Shown: positions 10,636 through 48,863, counted from the first letter of the stretch. The stretch is 64,000 nucleotides of DNA from Pirellulales bacterium (GCA_963716135.1 OY970289.1:1783462-1847461), one strand, 5' to 3'. Numbers and translations: made by a program. The notes: a model not told the origin generated them from the sequence alone.

Positions 10636-11019
10636 ATGCTGAAATTCTCGCTGATTGCGATTGGCGGCGCCATCGGTTCGCTCTTGCGCTACGCCTTCCA
10701 AGGGTGGGTGCAACGTCTCACCGATAGCGCCTTTCCGATCGGCACCATGGCGGTCAACATCACGGCCTGCTTCGCCATCGGATTTTTAAGCGGCCTGTTT
10801 GCCGGCCCGCAGTTGATCCGCGAGGAATATCGCATCGGACTGACCGTGGGCGTTTTGGGCGGCTATTCCACGTTTTCCACCTTCGGGCTGGAATCGTTTA
10901 ATCTGGCCAACGACGGCGAATTCGCTCTGGCGGCAGTCAACCTTGTGTTAAGCTGCGCTGCCGGGTTGGCGGCGGTGTGGATCGGATATCGTTTGGCCGA
11001 ACACTGGTTTGGAGTGTAA
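10636..11019 (+). CDS. crcB: Fluoride ion channel CrcB/FluC
   Basis: 127-aa ORF, 4 TM. 'IGGAIGSLLRYAF...FPIGTMAVNITACFAIGF...GVLGGYSTFSTFGLE' is typical CrcB. It lies directly behind the fluoride riboswitch. Confidence 0.92.
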   Translation: MLKFSLIAIGGAIGSLLRYAFQGWVQRLTDSAFPIGTMAVNITACFAIGFLSGLFAGPQLIREEYRIGLTVGVLGGYSTFSTFGLESFNLANDGEFALAAVNLVLSCAAGLAAVWIGYRLAEHWFGV

Positions 11020-11022
11020 ACC

Positions 11023-11370
11023 ATGAAAATTCCGCAAGACGGATATCTGCTGCGCATCTTCATCGGCGAGGCCGATCGCTGGCACGGCAAGCCGCTCTAC
11101 GAAGCCATCGTGATGAAAGCCCGCGAATTGCACATGGCCGGCGCCACCGTGCTGCGCGGCCCGATGGGCTTCGGCGCCAAAAGCCACATGCATACGGCTA
11201 AGATATTGCGCCTTTCGGAAGACCTTCCCTTCATCATCGAAATCGTCGATGGCAAAGAGAAGATCGACGAGCTGATGCCGCACATCGACGAAATGGTGCA
11301 AGAAGGCCTGGTCACCCTGGAGCGCGTGCAAGTGATCAAATACCGCGCCGGCAACGAAACGAAAACTTAG
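11023..11370 (+). CDS. DUF190 (PII-like) protein commonly co-transcribed with crcB
   Basis: 115-aa ORF starting 4 nt after crcB. 'LLRIFIGEADRWHGKPLYEAIVMKARELHMAGATVLRGPMGFG...LPFIIEIVD' is the DUF190 pattern. Confidence 0.8.
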   Translation: MKIPQDGYLLRIFIGEADRWHGKPLYEAIVMKARELHMAGATVLRGPMGFGAKSHMHTAKILRLSEDLPFIIEIVDGKEKIDELMPHIDEMVQEGLVTLERVQVIKYRAGNETKT

Positions 11371-11373
11371 GCA

Positions 11374-11435
11374 GTGAGTAGGTGAGTAAGTACGAAGCGA
11401 CCTTCTAATCACTCACCTCCTCACCTTCTCACCTC
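11374..11435. repeat. Word-built hairpin (words GTGAGTA / GGTGAG), bidirectional terminator position
   Basis: Left arm is 'agtgagtaggtgagtaagta' and right arm is 'tcactcacctcctcaccttctcacctc'. It lies between the convergent DUF190 and acylase genes. The right arm overlaps the last acylase codons. Confidence 0.55.
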
Positions 11436-13690
11436 TTCGCCTCCTCAATCCTCTCCCCCGGGTGATACTTCTCCACCGCCCCCGCCTTCACGTCATCCCA
11501 ATAAAACAATTCCCGCTTCATTTTTCCTTGCGACATGAGCACGGCCTGATCGAAATAATGCGGCGACTTGGGATCGCCGCTTTCGCCGAAATTCACCACC
11601 GTCGCGCCGCGCACCCGGTTCCCGAATTCAAACACGCCCATGTACGTCGCGCCCAGCACTCCGTAATGTTTCTTGGGCGTTTGCACGAAAGGCACATTCA
11701 GCACCGGCGTGTAGTATTCCGTGAAGATCACGCCCATCGGCCCGTAACCGCCAAGGCAGGGCAAGCTGGTCAAGGTGTCGTCGAGCGATAATTCCGAGAT
11801 GTCCCCCATCTCTGCCTGTCGGCGCACGCGATAAATATCTCCCCACGCCACGCGCCAGTCGCCGAATGTCTTTTGCAATTCTTGCGCGGCGGCCAACAAT
11901 GCTTCCAATTGCGCCACGGGATTGTTGGCGTACTGCGGCTTGAGCGTTTCGGCCGGATACACCGTGCCGTAAAGTTCCTCGTACCACGCCGTCGCGAGCG
12001 GAGCGGCAGTGCTGTCGGCGGTAATGCGGCTGTCCCACGCCTTCAAGTGCGCCAACAGCGGTTCCACCTGTTGGGCCGATTGCGGATTTTTCTGCCTCAG
12101 GTCCCCCAGCGCCGCGGCGATCTGCGGCATGTCATGCTTGGCCCAGTACAGCGTGGTGTCGAACGCCGCCTGCTTGAGCGCTTCGAATGTCCAATCGTCG
12201 CGCGACTGAAGCATTTCGCGCGATCGCTTGGCCCGCCGTTTGTCGTCGTCGCGATCCTCGATCATGTACAGCGGAAATCGGCTGCGATCCGGGTTGTCCA
12301 AATGCGTGGTGGTGAAGGGGCTGGAATTGCAGTTCTGCACGTAGCCGGCCCGGGGATTAAGCAATTGCGGCAACTCGTCGAGCTTGAAAAAGCCCTGCCA
12401 CTCGGTGCGCGGATCGGCCCCGTCCACCGGCTTGCTCCATTGAAATTGCGGGTCGCGCTTTGGAATCACGCCGTCATACAAATAGAAAATGTTGCCTTCG
12501 CGATCCGCATAGATCACGTTCATGAACGGCAACTGCATCAGCCCCAGTGCCTGGCGAAACTCCGCGAGATCGTGCGCTTTGCCCATGTGCAGCGCCTGCG
12601 TCATCGGCCGAAGCTCGTACAAGTTGCCCACGCGCGCCGCCAGGTAATGCTGCTCATCTTCCTTCTTCACCAGCGGCCCATGATCCGTTTTCTTGAACGT
12701 GTAATCCTGCGCCACCACGCCGTTGGACCCGCGCACCTTGATCGTTTCTTTCCACTGGGTTGCCGCGCGGTAGCCATCGCCGTAACGATACCGCAGCGGC
12801 TGCTTGGGATCGTCGAATGTCACCCGCCACACGTCGGCGATGTCGGGCTCGTTGGTCGTTAAGGCCCAGCCCAGATTTTCATTGTGGCCCAGCGTCGGCA
12901 GCGGATTCCCAAAAAACATTCCGCCCGCCAGGTTCATCCCCTCGCCGCTGTGCAGGTGCGCTTCGTACAACTGCGCAAATCCAAAATTCGGCAAATGCGG
13001 ATTAACCAACAGCAGCGCCTTGCCGTCGCGGGTTTTCTGCGGCGCGATCGCCCAGGCGTTGGATCCTCGAGCCGCCCAAATTCGCTCGTTGGTGCGCGGC
13101 AGATAATTGTTGTGCAGCCGCGTGTAGCGGAAGCAGAGCTCCAGCGTCACGTGCCGAAAAAACGCCAGCACCTGCCACGGCTCAAAATGCTCGATCAGCC
13201 GCGGTTTCACTTGCGGATTCTTGGTCAGGTAGTAATTCAACCCGGCCACAAACGCTTCGGTCAGCACTCGATCCGCCGGATCGCAATTCGGATAATCTTC
13301 GCGCGAGCGAGGCACGATTTCAAAGGCCCGATTCAGCAGATCCGAATTCAGCCCTTCGGCCCCGTGCACTTCGCTGTAGCGCCCCGTGGCCAGAATGTAA
13401 TTGTCTTCCACTTGCCAGAAATTATCTTCCGCCTGCGCATAGGCCAACCCAAACAATACGGCGGCATCAGTCGGACCATCGATGTGCGGCGTACCGTAGG
13501 CATCGCGATAGATGGTGATGTTCTTGGCAAGCTCCTCCGCTGTTGGCGCCGCCGCCGAACCAGCGGCTGTTTCAGTCGTCGAACGTGTTGCCGTTTCGCC
13601 GGCCCGGCACTCGCATCGGAGGTCGCCCGGAGAAATAAAGCCGGCAGTTATTGCGACCGCAAGGAGGCCACCGACCCACGAAACACGCAT
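11429..13690 (-). CDS. Penicillin/AHL acylase family protein (Ntn hydrolase, MEROPS S45), secreted
   Basis: The track ORF 11429..14041 is trimmed to ATG comp. 13688-13690, which gives signal peptide '[22 protein letters not shown]'. '[36 protein letters not shown]' and '[26 protein letters not shown]' (beta-subunit Ser nucleophile) are S45 hallmarks. Confidence 0.85.
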
Positions 13691-36433: not shown

Positions 36434-36493
36434 ACTGGCACAACAGTCTAGCAGAATCTTGAATCGATCCGGTTGGTGGTACACTGGAAGTAT

Positions 36494-37984
36494 ATGCCTT
36501 CTGCATCGTCAGGCTGTCGATTTTGCGTGCTCGCCTGCTTTCTGGCAGTGACAACCGTCTTTTTAGGTCGGGCTTCCGCAACTGAAACGATCACGAATTC
36601 TGAAGAGGCTCGCGAGCAACTTTACGCGGCTTATGCTAACCAGCTAAGCGAACTAGCCGCCGAATGTGATTCCAGCGGTCTGACGTCGCAAGCGCAGTTC
36701 ACGCGCAAGTGGCTGCCCAAGCGCGATCCGACGATGATCTATGTGTTTGCGCTGCCCGATTCATCCGCGCCGCCGGCGAAGCTCGTCGATTCGGAAGCGA
36801 GCCAGCAATGGTGGACGAAATTCACCGAGCTGCGACGCGGCCAGGCCGACAAGCTCTTCCAATTGGCCCAGTCGGCGGCCAAAGCCAAGCAACCCGCGCT
36901 GGCGTTTGAATTGGCGCGCGAAACGGTGCGTGAAAACCCCGACCACGCGCAGGGCCGAAAGATACTCGGCTTCGAAAAATATCAGGACTCTTGGAAAACC
37001 GCCGAAACGGTGCGCCGCCTAAAAGACGGGCAAGTCTGGAGCGATTCGTTCGGCTGGCTGCCCGCCGATCAATTGCCGCGCTACGAAAAAGGAATGCGCT
37101 ACTATCGCGGCAATTGGATCGACAAGGAGGAAGATGCCCGGCTGCACAGCAACATCAAGAACGGCTGGCATGTAGAGACCGATCATTACGCGGTCACGAC
37201 TAATCACAGCCTGGAAGAAGGAGCGCGGTTGGCCGGCCGGCTGGAAACGCTGTACGACGTGTGGCGGCAAGTGTTTCTGCCCTACTACGCCGGCGTGTCG
37301 GACGTGGAGCGCTGGTTTGCCGACGCAGCCATCCCCGCCGCTCCCCACAAATTGCACCAGGTGGTGTATTTCCGCGACAAAGAGCAATACGTCGATGCCC
37401 TGAAGCAGGCGCATCCGCAAATCGCCATGTCGCTGGGCATTTATATCGACACCGCCAACACGGCGTACTTTTTTTATGATGCGGAGCGTCACGATTCGAC
37501 GCTGAACCACGAAGGCACGCATCAGTTGTTCCAGGAAGTGCGCCCCGGCACGATCAAAGCCGGGGTGAAGAACAACTTTTGGATCGTTGAAGCCGTGGCG
37601 TGCTACATGGAATCGCTCGCCGAGCATCGCCTGCTGCCCGATGATCTTTACGGCAGTTACATCACCGTCGGCGGCGAAAATGAAGGCCGCGCGCCTGCGG
37701 CACGCAAGCGACTGCTGGACGACAACTTCTACGTGCCGCTGCGAGAATTGACGGCCTTCGGCCGAGATTCAATGCAGCACGATCCACGCCTGCCGATGAT
37801 CTATAGCGAAAGCTCGGGACTGGCGCTGTTCTTGATGGCTGCCGACGGTGGCCGCTACCGCGGGGCGCTGATGGATTATCTAATCGCCGTGTACACCGGA
37901 CACGCCGCGCCGGATGCGCTGGAAAAGCTTACCGGGCAGCGGTTCGAAGAACTCGATCGGCAGTACCGCGAGTTCATGAAGTAA
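36494..37984 (+). CDS. DUF1570-like putative zinc metallopeptidase (HExxH), secreted
   Basis: ATG 36494 gives 'MPSASSGCRFCVLACFLAVTTVFLGRASA'. 'HYAVTTNHSLEEGARLAGRLETLY...STLNHEGTHQLFQE' has an HExxH motif in the context typical of the DUF1570/peptidase-MA-like family. Confidence 0.72.
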   Translation: MPSASSGCRFCVLACFLAVTTVFLGRASATETITNSEEAREQLYAAYANQLSELAAECDSSGLTSQAQFTRKWLPKRDPTMIYVFALPDSSAPPAKLVDSEASQQWWTKFTELRRGQADKLFQLAQSAAKAKQPALAFELARETVRENPDHAQGRKILGFEKYQDSWKTAETVRRLKDGQVWSDSFGWLPADQLPRYEKGMRYYRGNWIDKEEDARLHSNIKNGWHVETDHYAVTTNHSLEEGARLAGRLETLYDVWRQVFLPYYAGVSDVERWFADAAIPAAPHKLHQVVYFRDKEQYVDALKQAHPQIAMSLGIYIDTANTAYFFYDAERHDSTLNHEGTHQLFQEVRPGTIKAGVKNNFWIVEAVACYMESLAEHRLLPDDLYGSYITVGGENEGRAPAARKRLLDDNFYVPLRELTAFGRDSMQHDPRLPMIYSESSGLALFLMAADGGRYRGALMDYLIAVYTGHAAPDALEKLTGQRFEELDRQYREFMK

Positions 37985-39277
37985 GCGACGGCTGTTCGTC
38001 TGCTTGCGGTTTGCCGCTGGCCGCCTGCCACGCGTCTTTACCGCAGGCGAATGCGTTGGGAGTGTGCACGTGCTCCGGCGCGCGCCCATGCCGACCATGC
38101 GCGCTGGAATGCGCCGTAATCGCGGCCAACGGTGCAGCCAACGTACGATTCGCGGAGGCTTGATTTGCTGCGTCGCCGTGATGGCCCGATTGATCACTCG
38201 ATTTTGAATGAACACTTGCACGCGCTGCGTCACTCGTGTGGGAAACTCGCGGCGGCGCTGCACGCGGTGTAAATCGGTCAGCGTGAGCGATTTGTCTTTT
38301 AGCGGCGCGGCCAGCAAGTTTGCGGTAGCGACCGCATCTTGAATTGCCAGGTTGATGCCCACGCCGCCCACCGGCGACATCGCGTGCGCCGCATCGCCGA
38401 TGCACAATAGCCCCGGCTTGTACCAACGCTCCAGGCGATCGATTTTCACGGTCAGCAGGCGGATGTCGTCCCAGGTGCGCAGCTCGTTCACGCGGTCGCC
38501 CAAAAATGGCGAGATTTCCAAAATCCGCGCCCGGAATGCTTCCAACCCGCGGGCCCGCACTTCATCGTAGCCTCCTTTGGGAATCACGTACGCACATTGC
38601 CAGTACTGGCCGCGGTAGATCATCACCAAAATGCTGCCGGCCGACACCTGGCCCAGCGGAATCAACGGGTCGCTCTCTTTGCGGGAAATCCGCATCCATA
38701 GCACGTCGATCGGCGAGCCGAAATCGCGCACCTTAAAGCCGGCGCGGTCGCGGAGCGTTGAGTGGCGCCCATCGCTGGCGACGGTCAATTCGGCCCGCAC
38801 TTCCAACGGTCCCTCCGGCGTTTCGGCATGCACGCCGACGACGCGGTCATCCTCTTCGATTAAATTGGTCACATTCGCCTGCATCCGCAGATGGAACGTC
38901 GGATATTTTTTCGCCTGCTCGGCCAAGAAATTCAGGAAATCCCATTGCGGCATCAGGGCGATGAACTTGCAGTGCGTCGGCAGGTAGCGGAAATCGGCGA
39001 TCATGGTTTCGAAATCGCCGATCTTGCCGGCCAGTTGCTGCACCTCCTGATGCTCGCGCTTCAGGAATTGTTCCAACAGGCCCAGTTCGTACATCACTTC
39101 CAGCGTGGAAGGATGGACCGTGTCGCCGCGAAAATCGCGCAAGAAATCGCCGTGCTTCTCCAGCACGGTCACGTCGACGCCGGCGCGGGCCAGCAGATAG
39201 CCGAGCATCATCCCGGCCGGTCCGCCGCCAGTGATGCAGCAGGTAGTTTGAACGGTTTTTGGTGTTTGGTTGCTCAT
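37974..39277 (-). pseudogene. FAD-dependent monooxygenase (UbiH/PheA-type fold), one frame break near the 3' end (~38080-38092)
   Basis: 'CCITGGGPAGMMLGYLLARAGVDVTVLEK' is the GxGxxG motif, with 'ASDGRHSTLR' and 'LLCIGDAAHAMSPVGGVGINLAIQDA'. After 'RIPARMVGMGAR' the family-typical 'PEHVHTPNAF' continues in another frame (track ORF 37974..38426). Uncorrected, the ORF runs 105 nt into the convergent gene. Confidence 0.85.
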
Positions 39278-39281
39278 GCGT

Positions 39282-39374
39282 GAAGTCTAGGTCGAAAAGT
39301 CCAAAAGTCTAAAAGTCGAAAAGTGCCGACCTGTTCTCTCTTTGACTCGTAGGCTTTTCGACTCTTCGACTTTT
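39282..39374. repeat. Word-built hairpin (words AAAAGTCGAAAAG)
   Basis: Left arm is 'gaagtctaggtcgaaaagtccaaaagtctaaaagtcgaaaagtg' and right arm is 'ctttgactcgtaggcttttcgactcttcgactttt'. It lies between yjbQ (stop 39380) and the monooxygenase start (39277). Confidence 0.55.
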
Positions 39375-39379
39375 AAACC

Positions 39380-39801
39380 TCACTCGCCAATGATTTTCAC
39401 CAGCACTCGCTTCCGCCGCCGGCCGTCGAATTCGTAGTAGAAAATATGCTCCCACGGGCCAAGATGCAGTTGGCCCTTGGTAATGGCCACGACCACTTCG
39501 CGCCCATCACCTGGCGCTTCAAGTGCGCATCGGCGTTATCTTCGCCGGTGCGGTTGTGGTGGTACGTCTTCGACGAAGCGTCGAACGGCGCCAGCTTTTC
39601 CAGCCACAGTTCGTAATCGTGGTGCAGGCCCGATTCGTTGTCGTTGATGAAGACCGACGCGGTGATGTGCATGGCGTTCACCAGCGCCAGGCCCTCCTTC
39701 ACGCCGCTGTCGCCGACGGCCTTTTCCACTTCGCGGTGAATCGAAACAATCGCCCGGCGCTGGGGCACTTCCATCCACAGTTCTTTGGTGAAGGTTTTCA
39801 T
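39380..39801 (-). pseudogene. yjbQ: YjbQ/UPF0047 family protein (secondary thiamine-phosphate synthase-like), one frame break (~39497-39506)
   Basis: The pieces are: '[29 protein letters not shown]...[34 protein letters not shown]...[20 protein letters not shown]' | '[40 protein letters not shown]'. The second part is in the adjacent frame, with its stop at comp. 39380-39382. Confidence 0.85.
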
Positions 39802-39917
39802 TGGGCTGCCACAAAATCCCGCTTGATTTGACGGCATTATAGCAGCAGACGGCTCAGATTGGCCCGGAAGTTGCATCATCTTTACCCGCACCGTAGGGAC
39901 TGCCAGAGGAGGCAAAT

Positions 39918-40487
39918 ATGCATTCGGCATTGATCGACACCAGATCGCGCACCAGAACGCACCGACAGGCTTGGGCAAACGAGACCAGCGAAGAGCGCGA
40001 AGTCGATCGACTGGAGCAGATTGCGTATTGGCTGGATAGCGCGTTCCGCGTGCCCGGCATCGGCTTGCGGTTCGGTTTCGACGCCATCCTGGACTTACTC
40101 CCGGGCGTTGGCGACGCGCTGGGCGCGCTCTTGTCGATGTACATCTTCCAGGCCGCGCGGCGGTTTGGCGTGCCCCGCGTCACGCTGGCGCGCATGGCGA
40201 TGAATATCGGCATCGACTACATCGGCGGTTTGGTGCCGTTCTTCGGCGCGATCTTCGACGCCTATTGGAAAGCGAACATTTGGAACGTCGGTCTATTGAA
40301 GCGGCATATCAAGGCAACGCCGCAAGAAGCCCGGCGAGCCCGTCGCGGCGACGGCGTGTTTGTGGCGCTGTGCATTGTCGGGCTGGTGCTGTTTATGGTC
40401 GCCACCTTTGCTCTGTTTGCGCTGGCGATCGCCTTGGTTGCCCAATTCTTCGCCCACATCGGCGGCCCGCGCAATTCGATCATCTAA
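39918..40487 (+). CDS. DUF4112 membrane protein
   Basis: 189-aa ORF. '[79 protein letters not shown]' is the DUF4112 core. Confidence 0.8.
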
Positions 40488-40591
40488 TTTGCAGAGGGCA
40501 CTCGATGAATCGATTGCCATTCGATTGGCGGTGGACGATAATCTCGGGCGCTCTCCCTTCTCTCGTCATGCGCTCCAGATCGCGATGATCC

Positions 40592-40849
40592 ATGGCCGAT
40601 CGACTAGTCACCGTCGCCAGTTTCCTCGGTCTCATCGAGGCGCATTTGGCGAAGAATCAGTTCGCTGAATCAGGCATCGAATCATTCTTATCCGACGAGA
40701 CGACAGCATACATGGCCTGGCATCTGACCAACGCTATCCACGGGATCAAGTTGCAGGTTAAGGGCGAAGATGTTGACGCCGCGCGCGAACTTTTGGCTGC
40801 CGACAGCGGTGCGCCCCTACAGCCGCTGCGGAAGAATTGCAGTCAATGA
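40592..40849 (+). CDS. DUF2007-like small protein (putative signal-transducing fold)
   Basis: 85-aa ORF. 'LVTVASFLGLIEAHLAKNQFAESGIESFLSDE...IKLQVKGEDVDAARELL' is the DUF2007 pattern. Its stop overlaps the next ATG (ATGA). Confidence 0.65.
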   Translation: MADRLVTVASFLGLIEAHLAKNQFAESGIESFLSDETTAYMAWHLTNAIHGIKLQVKGEDVDAARELLAADSGAPLQPLRKNCSQ

Positions 40850-41106
40850 TGGCGGAAGAAATGCCGGCGGCGGACGCCGGATTCGATGCGCACTTGGATG
40901 AGCCGGATCCCCTGACGCGGCGGGAAGACATGGCGGAGCGTGCATTCCGAGGCGCGGTGATCGGAATTTTGTTCGTGCCTTGGCAGTTGTGCGTGGCGTG
41001 GTTGCTTTTGAAAATCTATTTTTCAGATGAGCGGCTGGAACCGAGCCATCGCCGGAAAGCGTTTGTCGCGGCGACGATCAATTTCCTGTACGTGCTGATG
41101 GTTTGA
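40846..41106 (+). CDS. Small two-TM membrane protein, translationally coupled to the DUF2007 gene
   Basis: ATG 40846 overlaps the upstream TGA. 'MMAEEMPAADAGFDAHLDEPD...AFRGAVIGILFVPWQLCVAWLLLKIYF...AFVAATINFLYVLMV'. Confidence 0.55.
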   Translation: MMAEEMPAADAGFDAHLDEPDPLTRREDMAERAFRGAVIGILFVPWQLCVAWLLLKIYFSDERLEPSHRRKAFVAATINFLYVLMV

Positions 41107-41255
41107 ATTTTCCTGAAGTGGAAGCTGGGCATGCTCGTCTTTGCGGCGTAGGCCGCATGCCCGTTTGGTAGGTGGCCGGATGCGGCGTCCACCGGTACGA
41201 TTCGTGTAGAGGGTTTGGTCTCGGCAAAGAGGCCTGCGACGAAAGGAGACGGATC

Positions 41256-41732: not shown

Positions 41733-41772
41733 CCGCGAAGACGCGAAGATCGCGAAGGAGGACGATCTGCGA

Positions 41773-43001
41773 TCAGGGCGGGCTGCGGCACGCGCTGCAC
41801 ACGGCGCGACGCCGGCGGCCGACATAGCCAGTGGCCACCAGCGCCATTGCCGCCAGCACGATGCCCGACGGTTCGGGCACCAGCGTGTAGCCGATCAGGT
41901 CCAACGCCAGAATGTCGAGCGGCGTTACGATGCCCAACTCGCCGTCGTCGATGTTCGGATCCATGATCCCAAACGGCGGGCCGGGAAATGTGTAGGTGCT
42001 GTCCTTCCAGTGTTGCGCCTGGTACCCGTCGCCGAAGTTGATGCCCGTGGAAAACAGTGCGGAGGACGTGACGCCGCCGTCGTAGGACAAATAGGGATTG
42101 TCGCCGGGCACGTCGCTTGTGCCGGCGGCCCAATCGAGCACGGCGCCGCTAAGGGGCTGATCCACCAACGACGTGCTGTCGGCGGAGTAGCGGAACAAAT
42201 CGAGCACGGTAAAGATCGTTTCCGTCGAGTAGTCGTGAGGGTAATCGGGTCCATCGTGACCGGCGCCGTCGGAACTGGCGTAGTCGATGTGGTCCACGCC
42301 GCTAATGAATCCCATGCCGTGCGCCAGCTCGTGCGTGAGGACGGCGGTAAAGTCGATCTTTCCGGCGTCGATTCCGTCGCTGGGATCGAAATCCATGATG
42401 GGGAAGTAGATCGAGTTCACGACGATCGTGCCGTCGGCACCAGGCCGCCGTCCGCGCCCGGCAGCAGGCCCAAGGCCTTCTGGTTGGCGCGCGTCAGCCG
42501 CAGCGTGGAGTTGTAGACCAACGGGGCGGTCACATGCATGCGCAGCGACGGGGCGCCGGCCGTGTCGTTGGTGATCATGCTCAGCGCCGGCCCGGGCTGC
42601 AGCGAACTGACGGCCGAGGCGTCGTGCGCGGAAGTGCTGTCCAGGGCCAGCGCCGCGGCCACCGAACTGTAAGCGAATGGGCTGGTCGTCGGATCGACAT
42701 CGAAATAGCCCAGCGGTCCGCCCGGGATCGACGCTTCCACTAATTTGAAGTGCAGCACGATCGGATCGGCAAACTCGCTTTCCCACGTGCCGGTGGCGAT
42801 GCTGACCGAGGTCGCCAGGCCGCTCATGACCGGTGGAGGAAGCGGTGAGCCGACGTAGGGTAGCTCGATCAGCATCGCCGCGGCCGGCGACGCCGCCCAG
42901 AGAACTACAGCGACCGACAATGCGAGCACGCAGGCGCAGCGCGCGGTCGGCGAAGCCTTGGCGCACCTGGGCGGATGCGGTCGGCCGATGAATGCCGCCA
43001 T
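41773..43001 (-). pseudogene. Secreted HExxH metalloprotease with PEP-CTERM sorting signal, one frame break (~42431-42437)
   Basis: The N-part (track 42417..43001) has a signal peptide and '...LGLLPGADGGLV'. The C-part (other frame) reads 'DGTIVVNSIYFPIMDFD...AVLTHELAHGMGFISG...WKDS...IMDPNIDDGE...' and ends in 'LVPEPSGIVLAAMALVATGYVGRRRR' (PEP-CTERM). Confidence 0.8.
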
Positions 43002-43510
43002 GAAGGGACTCTCCTGTGGGCGAGACTGGCAACGAGAAAAGCAGATAAGTCGATTTCGCCTCGCGCTGGCGGAAGGGTAACACGGGGCGAAATCCGCGGC
43101 CAGCGTTTGGCAAGTTAGTGGAGGAGTTTTGCACCACCTTAAGGGGATTCCCTACATCTGCAGAGGGGACAGGCGCATGGCGGAGGGAATTCTCACGCAA
43201 AGGCGCGGAGACGCTAAGAAGAGGAGAATAGGAGACAAGGAGACATGAGCGCGCAGGGATAAACAGTTCCGCGCGAGGCGGGTTTTGTGCGATCGGCCCC
43301 GAGGGGTCGTGCATCCTTCGACACTTTTCCGAACAAGTCGGGAAAGGCTCAGGACTATAGGTTTGGCGATCGATCGGTGGGCTGGAATGCCTTGGACCAG
43401 CCCATTGAAGCTTGGCTGCCGATCGACCTCACGACCCCGGCGCTGGCTCCTGCGGCGGACCCATGCATGGGGTGAACGCGGGAGGGGAGCGCTTGGTCGG
43501 GCCGGGTTGC

Positions 43511-43584
43511 AGCTGTTAGCTTTTGGCAATTAGCCTTTAGCCAGCAGAAGCCAGCTAATTGCTAACGACTAATCGCTAACTGCT
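43511..43584. repeat. Word-built hairpin (words TTAGC / GCTAA)
   Basis: Left arm is 'agctgttagcttttggcaattagcctttagc' and right arm is 'gctaattgctaacgactaatcgctaactgct'. It lies in the 680-bp non-coding stretch preceding the TA islet. Confidence 0.5.
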
Positions 43585-43819
43585 AGTGTGGACATACTTC
43601 GCTGGGCACCGGCGGCAAGGCGTCGCGACCTGTTTATGTCCGAATTCGGGCGCAACATTGGCTCGCCCTTGCGAGCGGGACCTTTCGTCATGAGCACTGG
43701 CTGAACTTCTAGAAAGCCAACCACGAGCTGTACCACAGACCGCGACCGACGGTTCGCGGCTTTATGGTTTGCCCGATGCTCATCTAGCGGGAAGGGGCGA
43801 AGCTGGCGTTGCCGTGTTT

Positions 43820-43945
43820 CACCGCGGAGACGCAGAGACGCGGAGAGGAAATTTCCAACTGCGAATCTCCCTCGCGCGGTGAAGCGTTCAACGACCACAC
43901 GCAACATACACGAAGTGGTGGCCCAATTTCAAGGATCGTTTTGGG
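43820..43945 (+). repeat. Direct repeat copy 1 (~125 bp, imperfect) upstream of the higBA-like module
   Basis: '..ccgcggagacgcagagacgcggagagg..gttcaacgaccacacgcaacatACACGAAGTGGTGGCccaatttcaaggatcg' aligns by eye with 44712-44838. The identical 15-mer is at 43908-43922 and 44806-44820. Confidence 0.6.
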
Positions 43946-43965
43946 CCACGGTTACGATATAGCGC

Positions 43966-43993
43966 TTGACACATATAGTCTATAAGCTATAAT
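43966..43993 (+). promoter_or_regulatory. Consensus sigma70-type promoter of the TA module with embedded palindrome
   Basis: TTGACA (43966-43971) - 16 nt - TATAAT (43988-43993). The spacer contains the palindrome TATAGtCTATA (43974-43984). The first ATG lies 2 nt and the second ATG 8 nt after the -10 box. Confidence 0.6.
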
Positions 43994-43995
43994 TC

Positions 43996-44358
43996 ATGGG
44001 CATGTGGGCAGTCGAATATACCGATGAGTTCGAGCAATGGTGGAATTCGTTGGATGCGTACGAGCAACGTTCGGTCGATGCGAGTGTGGAACTTTTGCGC
44101 GAAGCAGGGCCGCGGCTTGGTCGGCCGCATGCGGATACACTTCACGGTTCGAAACATTCCAACATGAAAGAGTTGCGAACGCAGCATGAAGGGCGTCCGC
44201 TGCGAACGCTATTTGCCTTCGATCCTCGTCGCAGCGCGATTTTGCTGATTGGTGGCGATAAGACCGGCGACGATCGATTTTACGAACGCATGATTCCATT
44301 GGCAGATCGTTTGTATGACGAACATTTGGAAACACTTAAGCGAGAAGGGCTAATCTAA
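43996..44358 (+). CDS. RelE/ParE-superfamily toxin, HigB/Gp49-like
   Basis: 120-aa ORF. 'WAVEYTDEFEQWW..L...RLGRPHADTLHGSKHSNMKELRTQHEGRPLRTLFAFDPRRSAILLIGGDKTGDDRFYERMIPLADRLYDEHL' fits the Gp49/HigB-type killer pattern. It is followed by an XRE antitoxin, in toxin-first order. The start may be the second ATG (44002) if the mRNA is leaderless. Confidence 0.8.
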   Translation: MGMWAVEYTDEFEQWWNSLDAYEQRSVDASVELLREAGPRLGRPHADTLHGSKHSNMKELRTQHEGRPLRTLFAFDPRRSAILLIGGDKTGDDRFYERMIPLADRLYDEHLETLKREGLI

Positions 44359-44669
44359 TGGCCAAAAACTTTCGAGAATTAGAAGCAAAAATGAAGCCGG
44401 AGCATCGAGCCTGGGCCAAAGCACGGGCGAAGGAGATGATGGCGGAGATGCTGCTGGCGGAAATTCGCCGCAGCACCGGCCAGACTCAAAAGGAGGTCGC
44501 GGAAATCTTGGGCGTCAAGCAACCGACCTTGTCGCGCCTCGAATCGCAAGACGACATGCAAATCAGCACGTTGAATCGACTGATCGAAGCGCTGGGCGGC
44601 AAGCTAGAAATCATCGCCCATCTGCCCAAAGGCGACATCCGCATCAGCCAATTCACCGACGCCGCTTAA
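44358..44669 (+). CDS. XRE-family HTH antitoxin (HigA-like)
   Basis: 103-aa ORF whose ATG overlaps the toxin stop (TAATG). Its HTH is 'TGQTQKEVAEILGVKQPTLSRLESQDDMQISTLNRLIEALGGKLEI'. Confidence 0.85.
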   Translation: MAKNFRELEAKMKPEHRAWAKARAKEMMAEMLLAEIRRSTGQTQKEVAEILGVKQPTLSRLESQDDMQISTLNRLIEALGGKLEIIAHLPKGDIRISQFTDAA

Positions 44670-44674
44670 CCGCT

Positions 44675-44708
44675 CCCTCTCCCCATGTGGGAGAGGGCTG
44701 GGGTGAGG
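44675..44708. repeat. Family D palindrome acting as terminator-like hairpin after the antitoxin
   Basis: 9-bp stem CCCTCTCCC (44675-44683) / GGGAGAGGG (44689-44697), then 'ctggggtgagg'. It starts 6 nt after the stop. A sister copy lies at 6045-6078. Confidence 0.55.
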
Positions 44709-44711
44709 AGT

Positions 44712-44838
44712 TCGCCGCGGAAATCGCTAGACGTCGCGGAGGGCGCAATTCCTCGTGGTGCGTCAGTAGGCCCGTGGTGAGTTGTTCAACGTCCACGCGC
44801 ACTTTACACGAAGTGGTGGCTCGATTTCAAGGGATTCT
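44712..44838 (+). repeat. Direct repeat copy 2 upstream of the HEPN-motif gene
   Basis: '..ccgcggaaatcgctagacgtcgcggaggg..gttcaacgtccacgcgcactttACACGAAGTGGTGGCtcgatttcaagggattc'. I estimate ~75-80 percent identity to copy 1 by eye; this was not computed. Confidence 0.6.
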
Positions 44839-44910
44839 TGAGTGACTTTCTCTTCACTTTGTTATATTTGGCAGCGGACGAATTTTGTTCACGAAAGATT
44901 GTGGTGGAGT

Positions 44911-46245
44911 ATGTCCTACGACAAAAAGAAGCTTGCAAATTATGTTAGCGAACTGCTGTCCAATACGACCGCTGATTTTGAGAAAGTCGATCGAGATCGC
45001 CCCTACTCGATCTTAGGCGGCGCCGGGTCGCATGTTGAACTTACAAACCAAGCAGGACAAACGTTTGTTGGTAAAATGTCCGAGGAAGGAACGCCCACTC
45101 TTTACATCCTTGAAGCCGGGCTCCGTTCGCTCTATGCATTTGTGGATGAATGTCTTAAGGACCGCGAGTTTGCCACAAAGATTGGGAGCGACGCATTGGT
45201 CAAGCATCTTCAGGCTACGGCCAAAAAGTTCTATGCGGTGTCGCCCAGTGACCTAGATCTTGCAAAGATTGTGAAGGAAGACATCTTGCAGGCATTACGC
45301 GCAGAGATCAGGCAATGGCGCGTTCACGTTCCGATCAGCAACTTGCAAATCCAGCAGCCGCTAACGATTGGCAGGGTAACTTTCGTTCGGCACGAAGAGG
45401 GAGTAGTCGCTAGCACAAAGATTATTATTGATCATCAGGGACCTCCTAATGCTGATCGGAGTACATCGGACAAGGCAGCCCTATTAGTCACGATCGGTGC
45501 AATTTCTCAGCAGGGGTCAGCGTGGGCGGTCGCGGAGATTGAATCACACGAGAAAAGAGTTAGCGAAGTTGCTAGAGAGGAGATTGAAACCGCGGTGAAT
45601 GTGATTCGAGCGTTCACGCATGTATTTAATTCGCGTTCACTTCATTCGGCCTTTGGGCTGCCCTATGAACTAACCAATGGAACGGCGGGATTCATTTCGC
45701 AGTCTAAAGATCTGTTTTTAATTCAGATGGATCGCAGGGGTTTCTTTCATCCGTTTGATTTGAATGAGATCGTCGTAACGAAACTCAAAAGCGAGTATTA
45801 CTTCGATCAGCTGGTTAGGATTGCTGGAACGGCGTGGGGCTCACTTAATTCTTTGGAGAAAGCGGTACGAGTGGCTTTTCACTGGCTCGGTCGTTCAATC
45901 ATCGCGCTTACGAAGGCAGAAGCGTTCACCCAGTGTGTCATTGCGCTCGAAAGACTGTTGATCACCGACGACGAGGAGACAACTGTCGAGCGATTTGCTG
46001 ACCGTTTGGCGTACTTACTTTCAGATAAATCTGATGAGCGTAAAGCGATTCATAGGGCAGCCAAACGGCTTTACGACGTCCGCTCGAGAATTGTCCACGC
46101 GGGATTTGATTCCATTGAGGAACGTCAAATCCAGGAAATCGAGAATCTGGCTGTCGGCGGGTTGGTTAAGGCGGCTTCGCTATTGGACAGCCTTGTTGAC
46201 CACAATGCTTTGCGTGATTACTTCCACAATTGCAAGATGACGTAG
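44911..46245 (+). CDS. 444-aa protein with unassigned N-terminal region and C-terminal HEPN-like domain (R-x4-H motif); candidate Abi/ApeA-like defence effector
   Basis: ATG 44911 is preceded by GGTGGAG. G+C is visibly lower than in the flanks. The C-terminal ~130 aa 'LEKAVRVAFHWLGRSIIALTKAEAFTQCVIALERLLI...RFADRLAYLLSDKSDERKAIHRAAKRLYDVRSRIVHAG' shows the helix pattern and the 'Y..RSxIVH.G' (R-x4-H) signature of HEPN RNase domains. I recognise no other domain. Confidence 0.75.
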   Translation: MSYDKKKLANYVSELLSNTTADFEKVDRDRPYSILGGAGSHVELTNQAGQTFVGKMSEEGTPTLYILEAGLRSLYAFVDECLKDREFATKIGSDALVKHLQATAKKFYAVSPSDLDLAKIVKEDILQALRAEIRQWRVHVPISNLQIQQPLTIGRVTFVRHEEGVVASTKIIIDHQGPPNADRSTSDKAALLVTIGAISQQGSAWAVAEIESHEKRVSEVAREEIETAVNVIRAFTHVFNSRSLHSAFGLPYELTNGTAGFISQSKDLFLIQMDRRGFFHPFDLNEIVVTKLKSEYYFDQLVRIAGTAWGSLNSLEKAVRVAFHWLGRSIIALTKAEAFTQCVIALERLLITDDEETTVERFADRLAYLLSDKSDERKAIHRAAKRLYDVRSRIVHAGFDSIEERQIQEIENLAVGGLVKAASLLDSLVDHNALRDYFHNCKMT

Positions 46246-46431
46246 TTTTTCGTCATCGCGATAACCCTGGGCGGAGCCCGGGGCTAGTGGGCGTTGCGGC
46301 GGCGGGCGGATTTGCGGCCGGGGCGGTAGCCACTCGGCTGGGCTCGTGACGGGCCGGCGACGCGCGCGGCGGAATCTCCCGGTGTAACCGGGGGCTGACG
46401 GGTCAAACGGTGTGGATTGCCCATTGGTTGT

Positions 46432-46465
46432 GCTCCGGAGGCTGTTAGCCTCCGGCTATTTTTTT
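46432..46465 (+). terminator. Rho-independent terminator closing the islet
   Basis: Stem GCTCCGGAGGCT (46432-46443) / AGCCTCCGGC (46447-46456), followed by TATTTTTTT (to 46465). The orientation fits the + strand only. It overlaps the last codons of the convergent ygiQ. Confidence 0.7.
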
Positions 46466-48533
46466 CGCGGGCGGCGGTTTGTGTTGCGGTGGGGGCGGTA
46501 GCCGACGCCTGTGTTGGATTGTTTCGTGCTTTTCGTGAGTTTCGTGGTTGGCCGCGCGTCGTGCGACGGCTCGGCGGGAGCCTCGCCCTCCCGGGTGGAG
46601 CGCGGTTTGGTGCGCGACCCCCGGGCCGAGCCCGGGGCTAAGGGGGTGGCGCGGATGTGATCGCCGGAAGTTTCGTTTAGGGATTCGTTTGCTTTGCGGC
46701 GGCGGCGGGAGAGGGCTTCCTTTGGCGGGCGCTCCGGAATCAGGCAATCGCAGCCGTTGCCGATTAGATCCTGGCGGCCGGCTTGTTCTAGGGCTTTGCG
46801 CACTTCGAAATAGTTTTCGGGTTTGAAGAATTGCAATAGCGCGCGCTGCAGGCGGCGGTCGCGGAGGTGTTTGGCGATGTAGACCGGCTTCATCGTGAAC
46901 GGGTCGTAGCCTGTGTGGTACATGCAGGCGGCGATGTCGAAGGGGCTGGGGATGAAATCTTGGACCTGGTCGGGGCGGTAGTGGTTGCGCTTGAGGAACA
47001 GGGCCAGATCGATCATCGCGTTCAGATCGCTGCCGGGATGGCTGGCGATGTAGTACGGGATGAGGTACTGCTTTTTGCCGGCGGCTTTCGATTGGCGGCG
47101 GAAGGAGTCGGAGAACTTTTCGAAATCGTCGTTGCTGGGTTTTTTCATCTTCTCCAGCACGCCGGGGTCGGTGTGTTCGGGGGCGACCTTCAGATGGCCG
47201 CCGACGTGGTGCTGGGCCAGTTCGCGCATGTAGACCGGGTCGCGGCGGGCCAGGTCCATGCGGATGCCGGAGGCGACCAGCACTTTTTTGACGCCGGGCA
47301 GTTCGCGCGACTTTTTCATCAGGTCGATCAGCGGGCCGTGGTCGGTGCCCAGCAGTTTGCAGATGGTGGGATGGACGCAACTGAGTCGGCGGCAGACGGC
47401 TTCGACCTCGGGGCGGGAGCAGCGCATCTGGTACATGTTGGCGGTGGGGCCGCCGATATCGCTCACGACGCCGGTGAAATCGGGCTGGGTTTGCCGCATG
47501 CGCTCGATTTCCGCGAGCACCGATTGCTGGCTGCGGCTTTGGATGATGCGGCCTTCATGAGCGGTGATGCTGCAGAAGGTGCAGCCGCCGAAGCAGCCGC
47601 GCATGATTTGCACGGAGTGCTTGACGACGTCGTAGGCGGGGATTTTTTCCCGGCCGTAGCTGGGGTGCGGGCGGCGCGTGAACGGCAGGCCGTAGACGCG
47701 ATCCATTTCGGCTTGCGTCAGCGGCAGCGCGCCGGGGTTGACGACGATCGCTTCGGTGCCGTGGCGCTGCAGGAGGCGCTTGGCGTTGTAGGGGTTGGTT
47801 TCCTGGTGGGAGATTTTGGTCATCAGGCAGAAGGTGCGCTTGGATTGCGCATCGTCGGCGGAGATTGTTTCGTAGGGGGGGAGTTCGATGGTGGGGGGAT
47901 CGAAGGCGGAATTCGGAAGGCGGAAGGCGGAGGTTTCTTTGGCGCCAAGCGATATGCCACGCCGCGCAGGGTGCGCAGGTCTTTTACGGTGGCGCCGGCG
48001 GCGAGGCGGTGGGCGAGTTCGATGATCGGGCGTTCGCCCATGCCGTAGACCAACAGGTCGCACTTGGCGTCCATCAGGATGCTGCGGCGGACCTTGTCGC
48101 TCCAGTAGTCGTAGTGGGCGATGCGGCGGAGGCTGGCTTCGACGCCGCCGGCGATGATGGGGACGCCCTTATACGCCTCGCGGGCGCGCTGGCAGTAGGC
48201 CAGCGTGCAGCGGTCGGGGCGGCGGCCTATTGCGCCGCCGGGGCTGTAGGCATCGTCGTTGCGCACTTTGCGGTTGGCGGTGTAGTGGTTGATCATCGAA
48301 TCCATGTTGCCGGCGCTAATGGCGAAAAACAGCCGCGGCTTGCCGAAGGTGCGCCACGGCTCGCAGGAATGCCAATCGGGCTGGCTGAGGATGGCGACGC
48401 GGAAGCCTTCGTCTTCCAACAGGCGGCCGAGCAGGGCCATGGCGAAGCTGGGGTGATCGACGTAGGCGTCGCCGGTGACGAAGACGATGTCGACGTAGTC
48501 CCAGCCGCGCTCGTGCATTTCGGCGCGGGACAT
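46456..48533 (-). pseudogene. ygiQ: YgiQ-family radical SAM protein (UPF0313), one frame break (~47945-47952)
   Basis: The N-domain starts from ATG comp. 48531-48533: '[54 protein letters not shown]...[13 protein letters not shown]...LRGVAYR'. It continues in another frame as '[27 protein letters not shown]...IMRGCFGGCTFCSITAHEGR...' (CxxxCxxC). It has a basic C-terminal tail. The track's longer N-terminus is encoded by a word repeat and is probably not translated. Confidence 0.85.
47901..47933. repeat. Purine-word array, family E (AAGGCGGAATTCGGAAGGCGGAAGGCGGA), inside ygiQ
   Basis: 'cgAAGGCGGAATTCGGAAGGCGGAAGGCGGAgg'. Near-identical 30-mers lie at 52344-52372 and 55760-55790. Here it is read antisense as '[13 protein letters not shown]' in the ygiQ linker, right next to the frame break. 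Confidence 0.65.
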
Positions 48534-48540
48534 GGGAAGC

Positions 48541-48600
48541 GGCGAAGAGTGCGGAGTGCGAAGTTCGGAGGGCGGAGTGGATGGAGTGCGGCGGGCGGCC
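48541..48600. repeat. Purine-word array (GCGGAGTG / GCGAAG words) upstream of ygiQ
   Basis: 'ggcgaagagtgcggagtgcgaagttcggagggcggagtggatggagtgcggcgg'. It accounts for the spurious Pro/Ser-rich N-terminal extension of track ORF 47823..48701. Confidence 0.5.
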
Positions 48601-48863
48601 AGCGAGCCGACGAGGTCGATGTAGGGACCAAGCGCGCGGCCGAATTCGTCGGAGCGCGGGGGGTCGATGATCGGCAGCGGATTGAATGTGGGCGCGGACA
48701 TAAGGATCGCTCAAAGCAAGCGGCACCCTTGATTGTAGGCGAGGCGGGGTCAGGAAGTGAGTGGCTGGAGAAGAACTAAGAGCTATGAGCAATGAACAAT
48801 GAGCAAACGGCGGAATGCATTACCGTTCAATGTTCTTTGTTCAAAGCTCATAGTTTGCCGTCG

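Follow-up and report, generated by a model that had tools for sequence, protein, structure and literature searches.

A candidate HEPN abortive-infection RNase of an unnamed family in a HigBA-anchored variable slot of a Pirellulales genome

HEPN domains form a four-helix up-down bundle of two alpha-hairpins in which an Rx4-6H motif closes helix 3 into the helix-4 loop; a polar residue follows the Arg, an acidic residue lies in helix 2, and an insert may be found between helices 2 and 3 (PMC3710099). At least 16 HEPN clades associated with restriction-modification (R-M) systems have been described alongside PrrC/RloC (Anantharaman et al. 2013, PMC3710099). Other HEPN proteins combine sensing and execution in one chain. 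ApeA is an abortive-infection tRNA anticodon nuclease that is activated via a ligand pocket (10.64898/2026.01.26.701840), and DARNA (10.64898/2026.02.22.705581) and HepS (PMC13043305) are further examples. We analysed 64,000 nucleotides of a Pirellulales bacterium genome (GCA_963716135.1 OY970289.1:1783462-1847461), hereafter the window, in which an original prediction made from sequence had singled out positions 43820-46465 as a foreign, AT-rich islet holding a higBA-like toxin-antitoxin (TA) pair and an orphan gene for a 444-amino acid (aa) protein with a HEPN-type motif. The sequence-level claims of that prediction were re-checked and were borne out, with four corrections. Our results indicate that the 444-aa gene probably encodes a stand-alone, sensor-fused HEPN abortive-infection RNase that belongs to a mobile, unnamed family and occupies a variable slot anchored by HigBA.

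A word-indexed search returned 21 close relatives of the 444-aa protein, all of 437-470 aa, unannotated and without Pfam domains, and these were the basis of the alignment used for AlphaFold2. The full-length model (predicted local distance difference test (pLDDT) 89, predicted template modelling score 0.83) consists of an alpha/beta region from residue 1 to about 295 followed by an all-helical C-terminal region, and a separate model of residues 296-444 (45796-46245, + strand) reached a pLDDT of 95. In this model helix 1 (residues 314-330) and helix 2 (335-350, containing E347) are followed by an insert (359-370, containing R365), helix 3 (374-397) and helix 4 (404-423). The motif LYDVRSRIVHAG, R391-x4-H396, lies at the end of helix 3 within R391-S392-R-I-V-H396-A-G398 (R391-H396 codons at 46081-46098, E347 codon at 45949-45951). 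The modelled bundle, the place of the Rx4H motif, the helix-2 Glu and the insert agree with the structural and sequence definition of the HEPN superfamily; the protein differs in having E-R where Ex3[KR] is typical. When the domain model was compared with the PDB using Foldseek, the best match was the HEPN protein 2hsb (AF_0298; probability 0.99, template modelling (TM) scores 0.55/0.63), all other matches being generic helical bundles (TMq at most 0.35, TMt at most 0.45).

Conservation within the family points in the same direction. Y388, R391, S392, H396, G398, E347, R348 and R365 are invariant in the 21 close homologues. R391 and H396 are also invariant in 77 distant homologues, and the sole invariant columns of this 77-member alignment, which reaches down to 16% identity, are E347, R391 and H396, S392 being at least 90% conserved. 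The invariance of these three residues is the strongest single argument for HEPN identity. From the predicted fold, its topology and the invariant putative catalytic residues we conclude that the C-terminal ~150 aa are HEPN-like, as had been proposed from the R-x4-H motif.

The N-terminal ~295-aa alpha/beta region (44911-45795, + strand; AlphaFold2 pLDDT mostly above 85) is presumed to be a sensor or regulatory domain. This part had been described as unrecognisable, and it found no match in Pfam, NCBIfam, PDB sequences, PDB folds or BFVD; a Foldseek search of the full-length 444-aa model against PDB and BFVD likewise gave nothing significant. Its best-conserved part is a beta-meander at residues 133-160 (45307-45390) with the consensus W-x-V-x-x-P-I-x-N-L, in which W136, P141, N144, L145 and G154 stand out. 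An internal duplication, in which the N-terminal helices would be a degenerate HEPN domain, was rejected by hhalign (probability below 1%).

An exhaustive profile search of cluster representatives yielded 7,543 matches at E<=1e-3, of which 2,296 reached E<=1e-10 and 174 reached E<=1e-30. Among the top 150, the majority are 400-470 aa long and aligned over most of their length, and the clusters span Planctomycetota, Armatimonadota, Bacillota and Halobacteria. Two plasmid-borne members were found with tblastn, in Priestia megaterium (405 aa) and Halomicrobium salinisoli (662 aa), and hhalign joined both to the family at 99.5-99.7%. Both carry the PGAP name 'HEPN domain-containing protein', which is explained by no Pfam, NCBIfam or PADLOC model, and no model from these three collections matched any of ten distant members. 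The gene is AT-richer than its surroundings in the window and at 9 of 10 homologous loci (G+C of 0.41 vs 0.64 at L012, 0.41 vs 0.51 at L019 and 0.48 vs 0.56 at L008), the exception being L021. We conclude that the family is large, unnamed and horizontally mobile, and that it lacks a Pfam, NCBIfam or full PADLOC model.

The homologues have different neighbours at different loci, and a conserved partner gene was not observed. Many of these neighbours are R-M or other defence genes. The Schlesneria homologue (L001) has Type I hsdM/S/R genes on one side and an integrase and McrBC on the other, and another (L004) lies by Type I hsdMS genes, integrases and a gene matching the defence candidate PDC-S31 (5e-56). 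At L011/L022 the genes for a Type III methyltransferase (3.7e-172) and the restriction subunit enclose the homologue, which has the same orientation and is separated from them by gaps of 68 and 10 nt. Elsewhere it directly follows an MmeI-type enzyme (L010), adjoins a NucC/PD-(D/E)xK nuclease (L018), or lies near ArdC and a giant helicase (L005), and the plasmid homologues lie by a restriction endonuclease and DUF87 or near DUF262 and CoiA. A defence role of the family is suggested by guilt by association and by embedding in R-M operons, a principle of association that has been validated experimentally for other genes (10.1101/2024.01.29.577857).

Several results weigh against reading the 444-aa protein as an anti-phage HEPN RNase. 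The proposed search with HEPN-clan Pfam models matched neither the protein itself (E<=1) nor the 21 close members (E<=5). No sequence relative was detected in the PDB, as the sequence profiles matched only antibody frameworks and PAN3, which we regard as noise. For 2hsb, Foldseek gave an E-value of 0.27; because this is not significant alone, we base the HEPN fold call on TM-score gap, topology and motifs taken together. Phage records encoded no family member, and a promoter scan of the region found no strong promoter in front of the 444-aa gene. Furthermore, roughly half of the homologue loci have metabolic neighbours such as trpE, esterase, T2SS F and DegT genes. These housekeeping-like contexts, the lack of a match to validated defence models and the fact that HEPN domains also serve TA systems and RNA processing (PMC3710099) would fit an active RNase that is not directed against phages, such as a selfish or addictive toxin, a stress-response RNase or a mobile RNA-processing enzyme. 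However, a conserved antitoxin-like partner gene was not found, several unrelated lineages carry the gene within or alongside R-M operons and candidate defence genes, and the same slot in relatives of the window carries other defence-type genes. A core role in RNA processing is further opposed by the patchy distribution and foreign composition of the gene. We therefore consider a non-defence RNase unlikely.

Within the metabolic contexts, the homologues at the Rhodopirellula-type loci L002 and L008 directly follow trpE (anthranilate synthase I) and have McsB on their upstream side, and at the Armatimonadetes locus L005 a chorismate-binding gene lies 6 kb upstream of the homologue. Placement at the side of trpE may represent a second preferred insertion site or a coincidence.

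The sole weak relative in PADLOC, and the only contact of the protein with a defence database, also bears on the question of an effector role. The PADLOC run that had been proposed returned a partial match to DzbB of the Dazbog system (PDLC03836), in which residues 358-413 aligned with model positions 267-322 of 341 (~56 positions, E 6e-3); a weak local match around the Rx4H helix recurred in 11 of the 21 close members (best E 3.4e-4). DzbB shows antitoxin-type behaviour in Dazbog. As the dzbB deletion could not be transformed, caution is needed in assuming that the 444-aa protein is an effector. The 662-aa archaeal member on the Halomicrobium salinisoli plasmid (L016, NZ_CP084468.1, 7257-9245) is followed 1.6 kb downstream on the same strand by a DUF262 gene (10867-12582), an arrangement that resembles the pairing of DzbA (DUF262) with DzbB. 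These similarities, and the existence of HEPN domains without catalytic activity (PMC3710099), could indicate a regulator or adaptor whose HEPN-like domain binds a ligand or RNA or is otherwise regulatory. Such domains have typically lost Rx4-6H (PMC3710099), however, whereas here the R, the H and the helix-2 Glu are precisely the residues that alone are invariant family-wide, which we take as a signature of catalytic selection; in addition, a DUF262 partner is absent from the window and from most loci. We thus give a non-catalytic role very little credence. Assignment to DzbB itself was rejected as well. The match is partial, the ten distant members did not match DzbB, and DzbB requires its DzbA partner, whereas the neighbours in the window are higBA, a PEP-CTERM protein gene and ygiQ, with no adjacent DUF262 gene.

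The 444-aa protein resembles PrrC/RloC and the R-M-linked clades in carrying Rx4H, preceded by an acidic residue, in a C-terminal HEPN domain, in the recurrence of its family in or beside R-M operons (Type I, Type III and MmeI-type) and in its predicted role as a second-line suicidal RNase. PrrC and RloC carry an N-terminal ABC-ATPase, whereas neither an ATPase nor any other Pfam or NCBIfam domain was found in residues 1-295, so the protein does not belong to PrrC/RloC, and no Pfam model derived from the R-M-linked clades matches it. ApeA offers the best functional analogy, since in it, too, one polypeptide joins a large N-terminal part that is not catalytic to a HEPN domain at the C-terminus. 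Nevertheless, ApeA is ~590 aa long and predominantly helical with an N/Mid/split-HEPN organisation, whereas the window protein has 444 aa, an alpha/beta N-terminal region and a compact HEPN domain; PF18739 (HEPN_Apea) gave no match and no ApeA structure was among the PDB fold matches. The suggestion of an ApeA-like or Abi-like protein thus holds as a fair functional analogy and fails as family membership, as assignment to Abi_2, MAE_28990 or RiboL-PSP was not supported by any Pfam HEPN match either. HepS, DARNA and HEC-08 resemble the 444-aa protein as stand-alone HEPN RNases that sense and execute with no partner gene. Like ApeA, they were excluded as homologues because of their architecture: HepS is a small HEPN-only tetramer (PMC13043305), and DARNA and HEC-08 have an N-terminal HEPN domain combined with a Pds5-like domain and with zinc fingers, respectively, whereas the HEPN domain of the window protein is C-terminal. 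The 444-aa protein is best described as a member of an unnamed new family within the known class of R-M- or defence-island-linked single-protein HEPN RNases.

By analogy with PrrC/RloC, ApeA, DARNA and HepS, we infer RNase activity, dimerisation, a sensor role of the N-terminal region, a trigger and an abortive-infection phenotype. The protein would be made in a latent form, and the pairing of two HEPN domains would create a composite active site made up of R391 and H396, together with S392 and E347. Until an infection cue is received, this site would be kept inactive by the N-terminal domain or, in some genomes, by an associated R-M complex. The activated enzyme would then cleave RNA without a metal, the likeliest targets being tRNA anticodon loops and otherwise mRNA or rRNA, such that translation would stop and the infection would be aborted. 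PrrC-style guarding of the R-M system is plausible for the R-M-embedded homologues. Masking of this kind cannot apply in the window because no R-M system is adjacent to the gene, which makes autonomous sensing more likely for the window protein.

The ORF (open reading frame) listing and Pfam matches agreed with the predicted layout of three + strand genes against minus-strand flanks, a PEP-CTERM protein gene on one side and ygiQ on the other. The higB-like ORF extends from 43996 to 44358, the higA-like ORF, which overlaps the higB stop codon by 1 nt, from 44358 to 44669, and the 444-aa ORF from 44911 to 46245. An upstream GTG at 44842 would give a protein of 467 aa; because all 21 close homologues begin with MSYDKK, we set the true start at ATG 44911 and ruled out the GTG. 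The claim of an AT-rich stretch was upheld by a G+C profile in 2.4-kb windows, in which the islet is the lowest-G+C 2.4 kb of the entire 64-kb window (0.513, where the median is 0.595 and the 5th percentile 0.569); G+C of the islet taken as a whole is 0.512 vs 0.595 for the window. G+C at third codon positions (GC3), computed per gene, is low for higB (0.52) and the 444-aa gene (0.53) compared to the neighbours (0.70-0.82); unlike these two, higA is native-like (0.70). The predicted sigma-70-type promoter TTGACA-16-TATAAT upstream of higBA (43966-43993, + strand) is a 12/12 consensus match, and the predicted + strand intrinsic terminator (46435-46465) has a 9-bp stem with seven G-C pairs (46435-46455) and a 3-nt loop followed by CTATTTTTTT (T7), the T-run extending into the last codons of the convergent ygiQ gene. 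Promoter-like and terminator-like site totals across the region were not above those of shuffles; these two sites stand out by quality alone.

Whether the three genes form one unit was addressed by synteny. Members of the HigA 90%-identity cluster on four other contigs led to related contigs. On one of these (L027) the gene order is CMD, zinc alcohol dehydrogenase (ADH), higB, higA, a 247-aa gene and ygiQ, and blastn aligned it with the window at 37071-37983 (71%), over the CMD gene (76%), at 43958-44708 (78%) and over ygiQ from 46685 (84%), with no alignment between 44708 and 46685. On a second (L028), higBA (83%) is followed by a 123-aa ORF, a DUF5343 gene and a DpnII/MboI-like gene, and then by ygiQ from window position 46684 (86%). 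The right-hand homology therefore resumes at 46685 (L027) or 46684 (L028) by blastn, and at 46612 by tblastx. The conserved TA block (43958-44708) covers the promoter, higBA and a hairpin. Beyond it, the segment at 44709-46684, which holds the 444-aa gene in the window, has no nucleotide counterpart in L027 or L028. The 247-aa cargo gene of L027 matches the PADLOC candidate PDC-M04A (1.4e-6). The arrangement higBA-[slot]-ygiQ is thus common to three related loci with near-identical boundaries and three different cargos.

Nucleotide identity of the higBA block among the relatives is 78-83%, and that of the core flanks 76-86%. Since the divergence of the TA block is close to that of the core genes on either side, higBA appears to be ancestral at this site. 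Moreover, because higBA is conserved in place while the DNA up to ygiQ is replaced in relatives, the TA pair is resident and only the 444-aa gene is variable cargo. The foreign islet accordingly holds in part: the 444-aa gene is accessory and mobile and recurs near R-M and defence genes, and the three genes do not make one islet. From the comparison with relatives we conclude that the three-gene islet is really two units: a TA anchor that is resident and a defence slot whose content varies.

The 680 bp of gene-free DNA upstream of higBA had been called repeat-rich. We found one significant repeat in it, a 60-nt direct repeat whose first copy (43875-43934, + strand) ends 24 nt upstream of the conserved higBA block and whose second copy (44773-44832, + strand) lies 79 nt upstream of the 444-aa gene start, so that the copies bracket the block. 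They are 82% identical (local alignment score 65 vs 19.3 +/- 2.2 in shuffles), and the 16-nt core occurs exactly twice in the window vs 0.03 times expected. The spacer has no Rfam match, and no counterpart of it was found in relatives. The repeat copies have no shared fold on either strand, there is no third copy past the 444-aa gene or elsewhere in the window, and no copies were found in relatives or metagenomes. The repeat may be a scar left by recombination, or else a regulatory element common to higBA and the 444-aa gene. An RNA element or attC-like structure was rejected on the lack of a shared fold, of an Rfam match and of copies elsewhere, and an integron cassette array was rejected because the repeats lack a stable shared fold and no copy follows the 444-aa gene. 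The G+C-rich repeats D4-D6, which relate the spacer 3' of the 444-aa gene to the ygiQ tail, are probably low-complexity chance matches.

The original prediction had joined the TA pair and the HEPN gene in one module. In such a three-gene system HigBA would gate or co-regulate the HEPN effector, with the 60-nt repeat as a shared control element. The adjacency of the three genes on one strand, their AT-richness relative to the flanks, the highly significant repeat upstream of both higBA and the 444-aa gene and the lack of a strong separate promoter for the latter are all consistent with this arrangement. Nevertheless, higBA lies alongside the homologue at none of about 17 other loci, and in relatives the TA block is followed by different cargo or stands in other surroundings. 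The block is also closed by a conserved hairpin, the repeat lies outside it and is absent from relatives, and higA is native-like in GC3, whereas the HEPN gene is not. A three-gene system is therefore quite improbable, and the 444-aa gene is better regarded as cargo next to an independent TA pair.

That pair was identified as predicted, with a RelE/ParE superfamily toxin encoded first (HigB; Pfam PF05973 Gp49, 6.8e-21) and an XRE antitoxin second (HigA; HTH_37, 1.7e-9, also HTH_31 and HTH_3). The Gp49 toxin-first order, the XRE-HTH antitoxin, the 1-nt overlap and the retention of the pair in L027, L028 and L029 match what is expected of a type II TA module. The conserved higB start corresponds to ATG 44002 in the window and to GTG in L027, and lies 6-8 nt past the conserved -10 box; higB is called as 118 aa in L027 and L029. 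The true start is thus probably ATG 44002 (118 aa), and because it is only 6-8 nt past the -10 box the higBA mRNA is expected to be leaderless or near-leaderless. L027 retains the -10 box and, upstream of it, TATAGCGCTTGA, and a palindrome read from the promoter spacer, TATAG-T-CTATA (43974-43984), may be a HigA operator. A G+C-rich 9-bp hairpin just past the higA stop codon (44676-44698, + strand; -25.4 kcal/mol for 44665-44715) has its stem kept in L027 with a different loop and marks the end of the conserved TA block. This hairpin has no T-run and may serve as a terminator or stabiliser. Judging from these features, HigBA forms the left edge of the slot as a resident type II TA module in its own right, equipped with a promoter and a closing hairpin. 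It shares with canonical HigBA or Gp49-XRE modules the toxin-first order, overlapping stop and start codons and a promoter of its own, and is unusual only in its leaderless-type promoter spacing and in anchoring a variable slot. In a metagenomic relative (L030, 468-848) higB is precisely deleted and the promoter is joined to higA, leaving an orphan antitoxin; the junction corresponds to window positions 43957-44016 followed by 44343-44665.

The right-hand anchor of the slot is a ygiQ-type radical SAM gene (46456-48701, - strand; Radical_SAM_N, Radical_SAM and DUF3362 in Pfam) with 84-86% nucleotide identity to L027 and L028. It consists of two overlapping ORFs in different frames, 47823-48701 and 46456-48063, with the frameshift noted at 47895-47942, and the Radical_SAM_N profile is divided between them (positions 2-200 in the former and 211-301 in the latter). 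No long homopolymer was present at the junction. As read from the window sequence, ygiQ is frameshifted and would be either a pseudogene or the product of a sequencing error. To the left of higBA, the window has an extra ~3.3 kb (37984-41254) between the gene at 36473-37984 and the CMD gene relative to L027, and a PEP-CTERM (HExxH) protein is encoded at 41733-43957 where L027 has the ADH gene. Because of these differences we consider the neighbourhood left of higBA to be variable as well.

Two further repeats were observed. A 64-nt G+C-rich element that is 91% identical between L027 (3636-3699) and L028 (919-982) lies in their otherwise unrelated cargo slots, and L028 also has a weaker inverted copy at about 771-818. 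The element may be of REP/MITE type or may serve the slot as a recombination site. Within the coding sequence of the 444-aa gene, a 21-nt inverted repeat (45649-45669 / 46049-46069, 379 nt apart, 19/21 complementary) pairs the AFGLPYE codons with the IHRAAKR codons. This complementarity was above that of all 60 synonymous-codon shuffles (maximum 16/21) and was not conserved in 11 homologous genes (4-13/21).

Taken individually, the 444-aa gene is a credible and fairly ordinary candidate anti-phage gene and not part of a three-gene system. It opens no new class of mechanism: the R-M-linked HEPN RNases go back to large-scale predictions of 2013, and several of them have been characterised in the meantime. 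A wider claim, which we put forward tentatively and with reservations, is that the family constitutes a widespread unrecognised single-protein abortive-infection system of bacteria and archaea, whose N-terminal domain has a new fold and senses a new cue, and which, in the lineage of the window, is exchanged with other defence genes at a hotspot that lies at the 3' end of ygiQ and is anchored by HigBA. If so, one more sizeable family would join the single-protein HEPN anticodon or RNA nucleases (PrrC, ApeA, DARNA and HepS), with a sensor domain that matches nothing known and possibly responds to a new trigger. Defence-finding pipelines overlook the family because it is absent from Pfam, NCBIfam and PADLOC, and a profile built from the family alignment would close this gap. 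The locus itself offers a compact and clear case of a variable defence slot anchored by a TA pair in Planctomycetota, whose defence repertoire is poorly studied.

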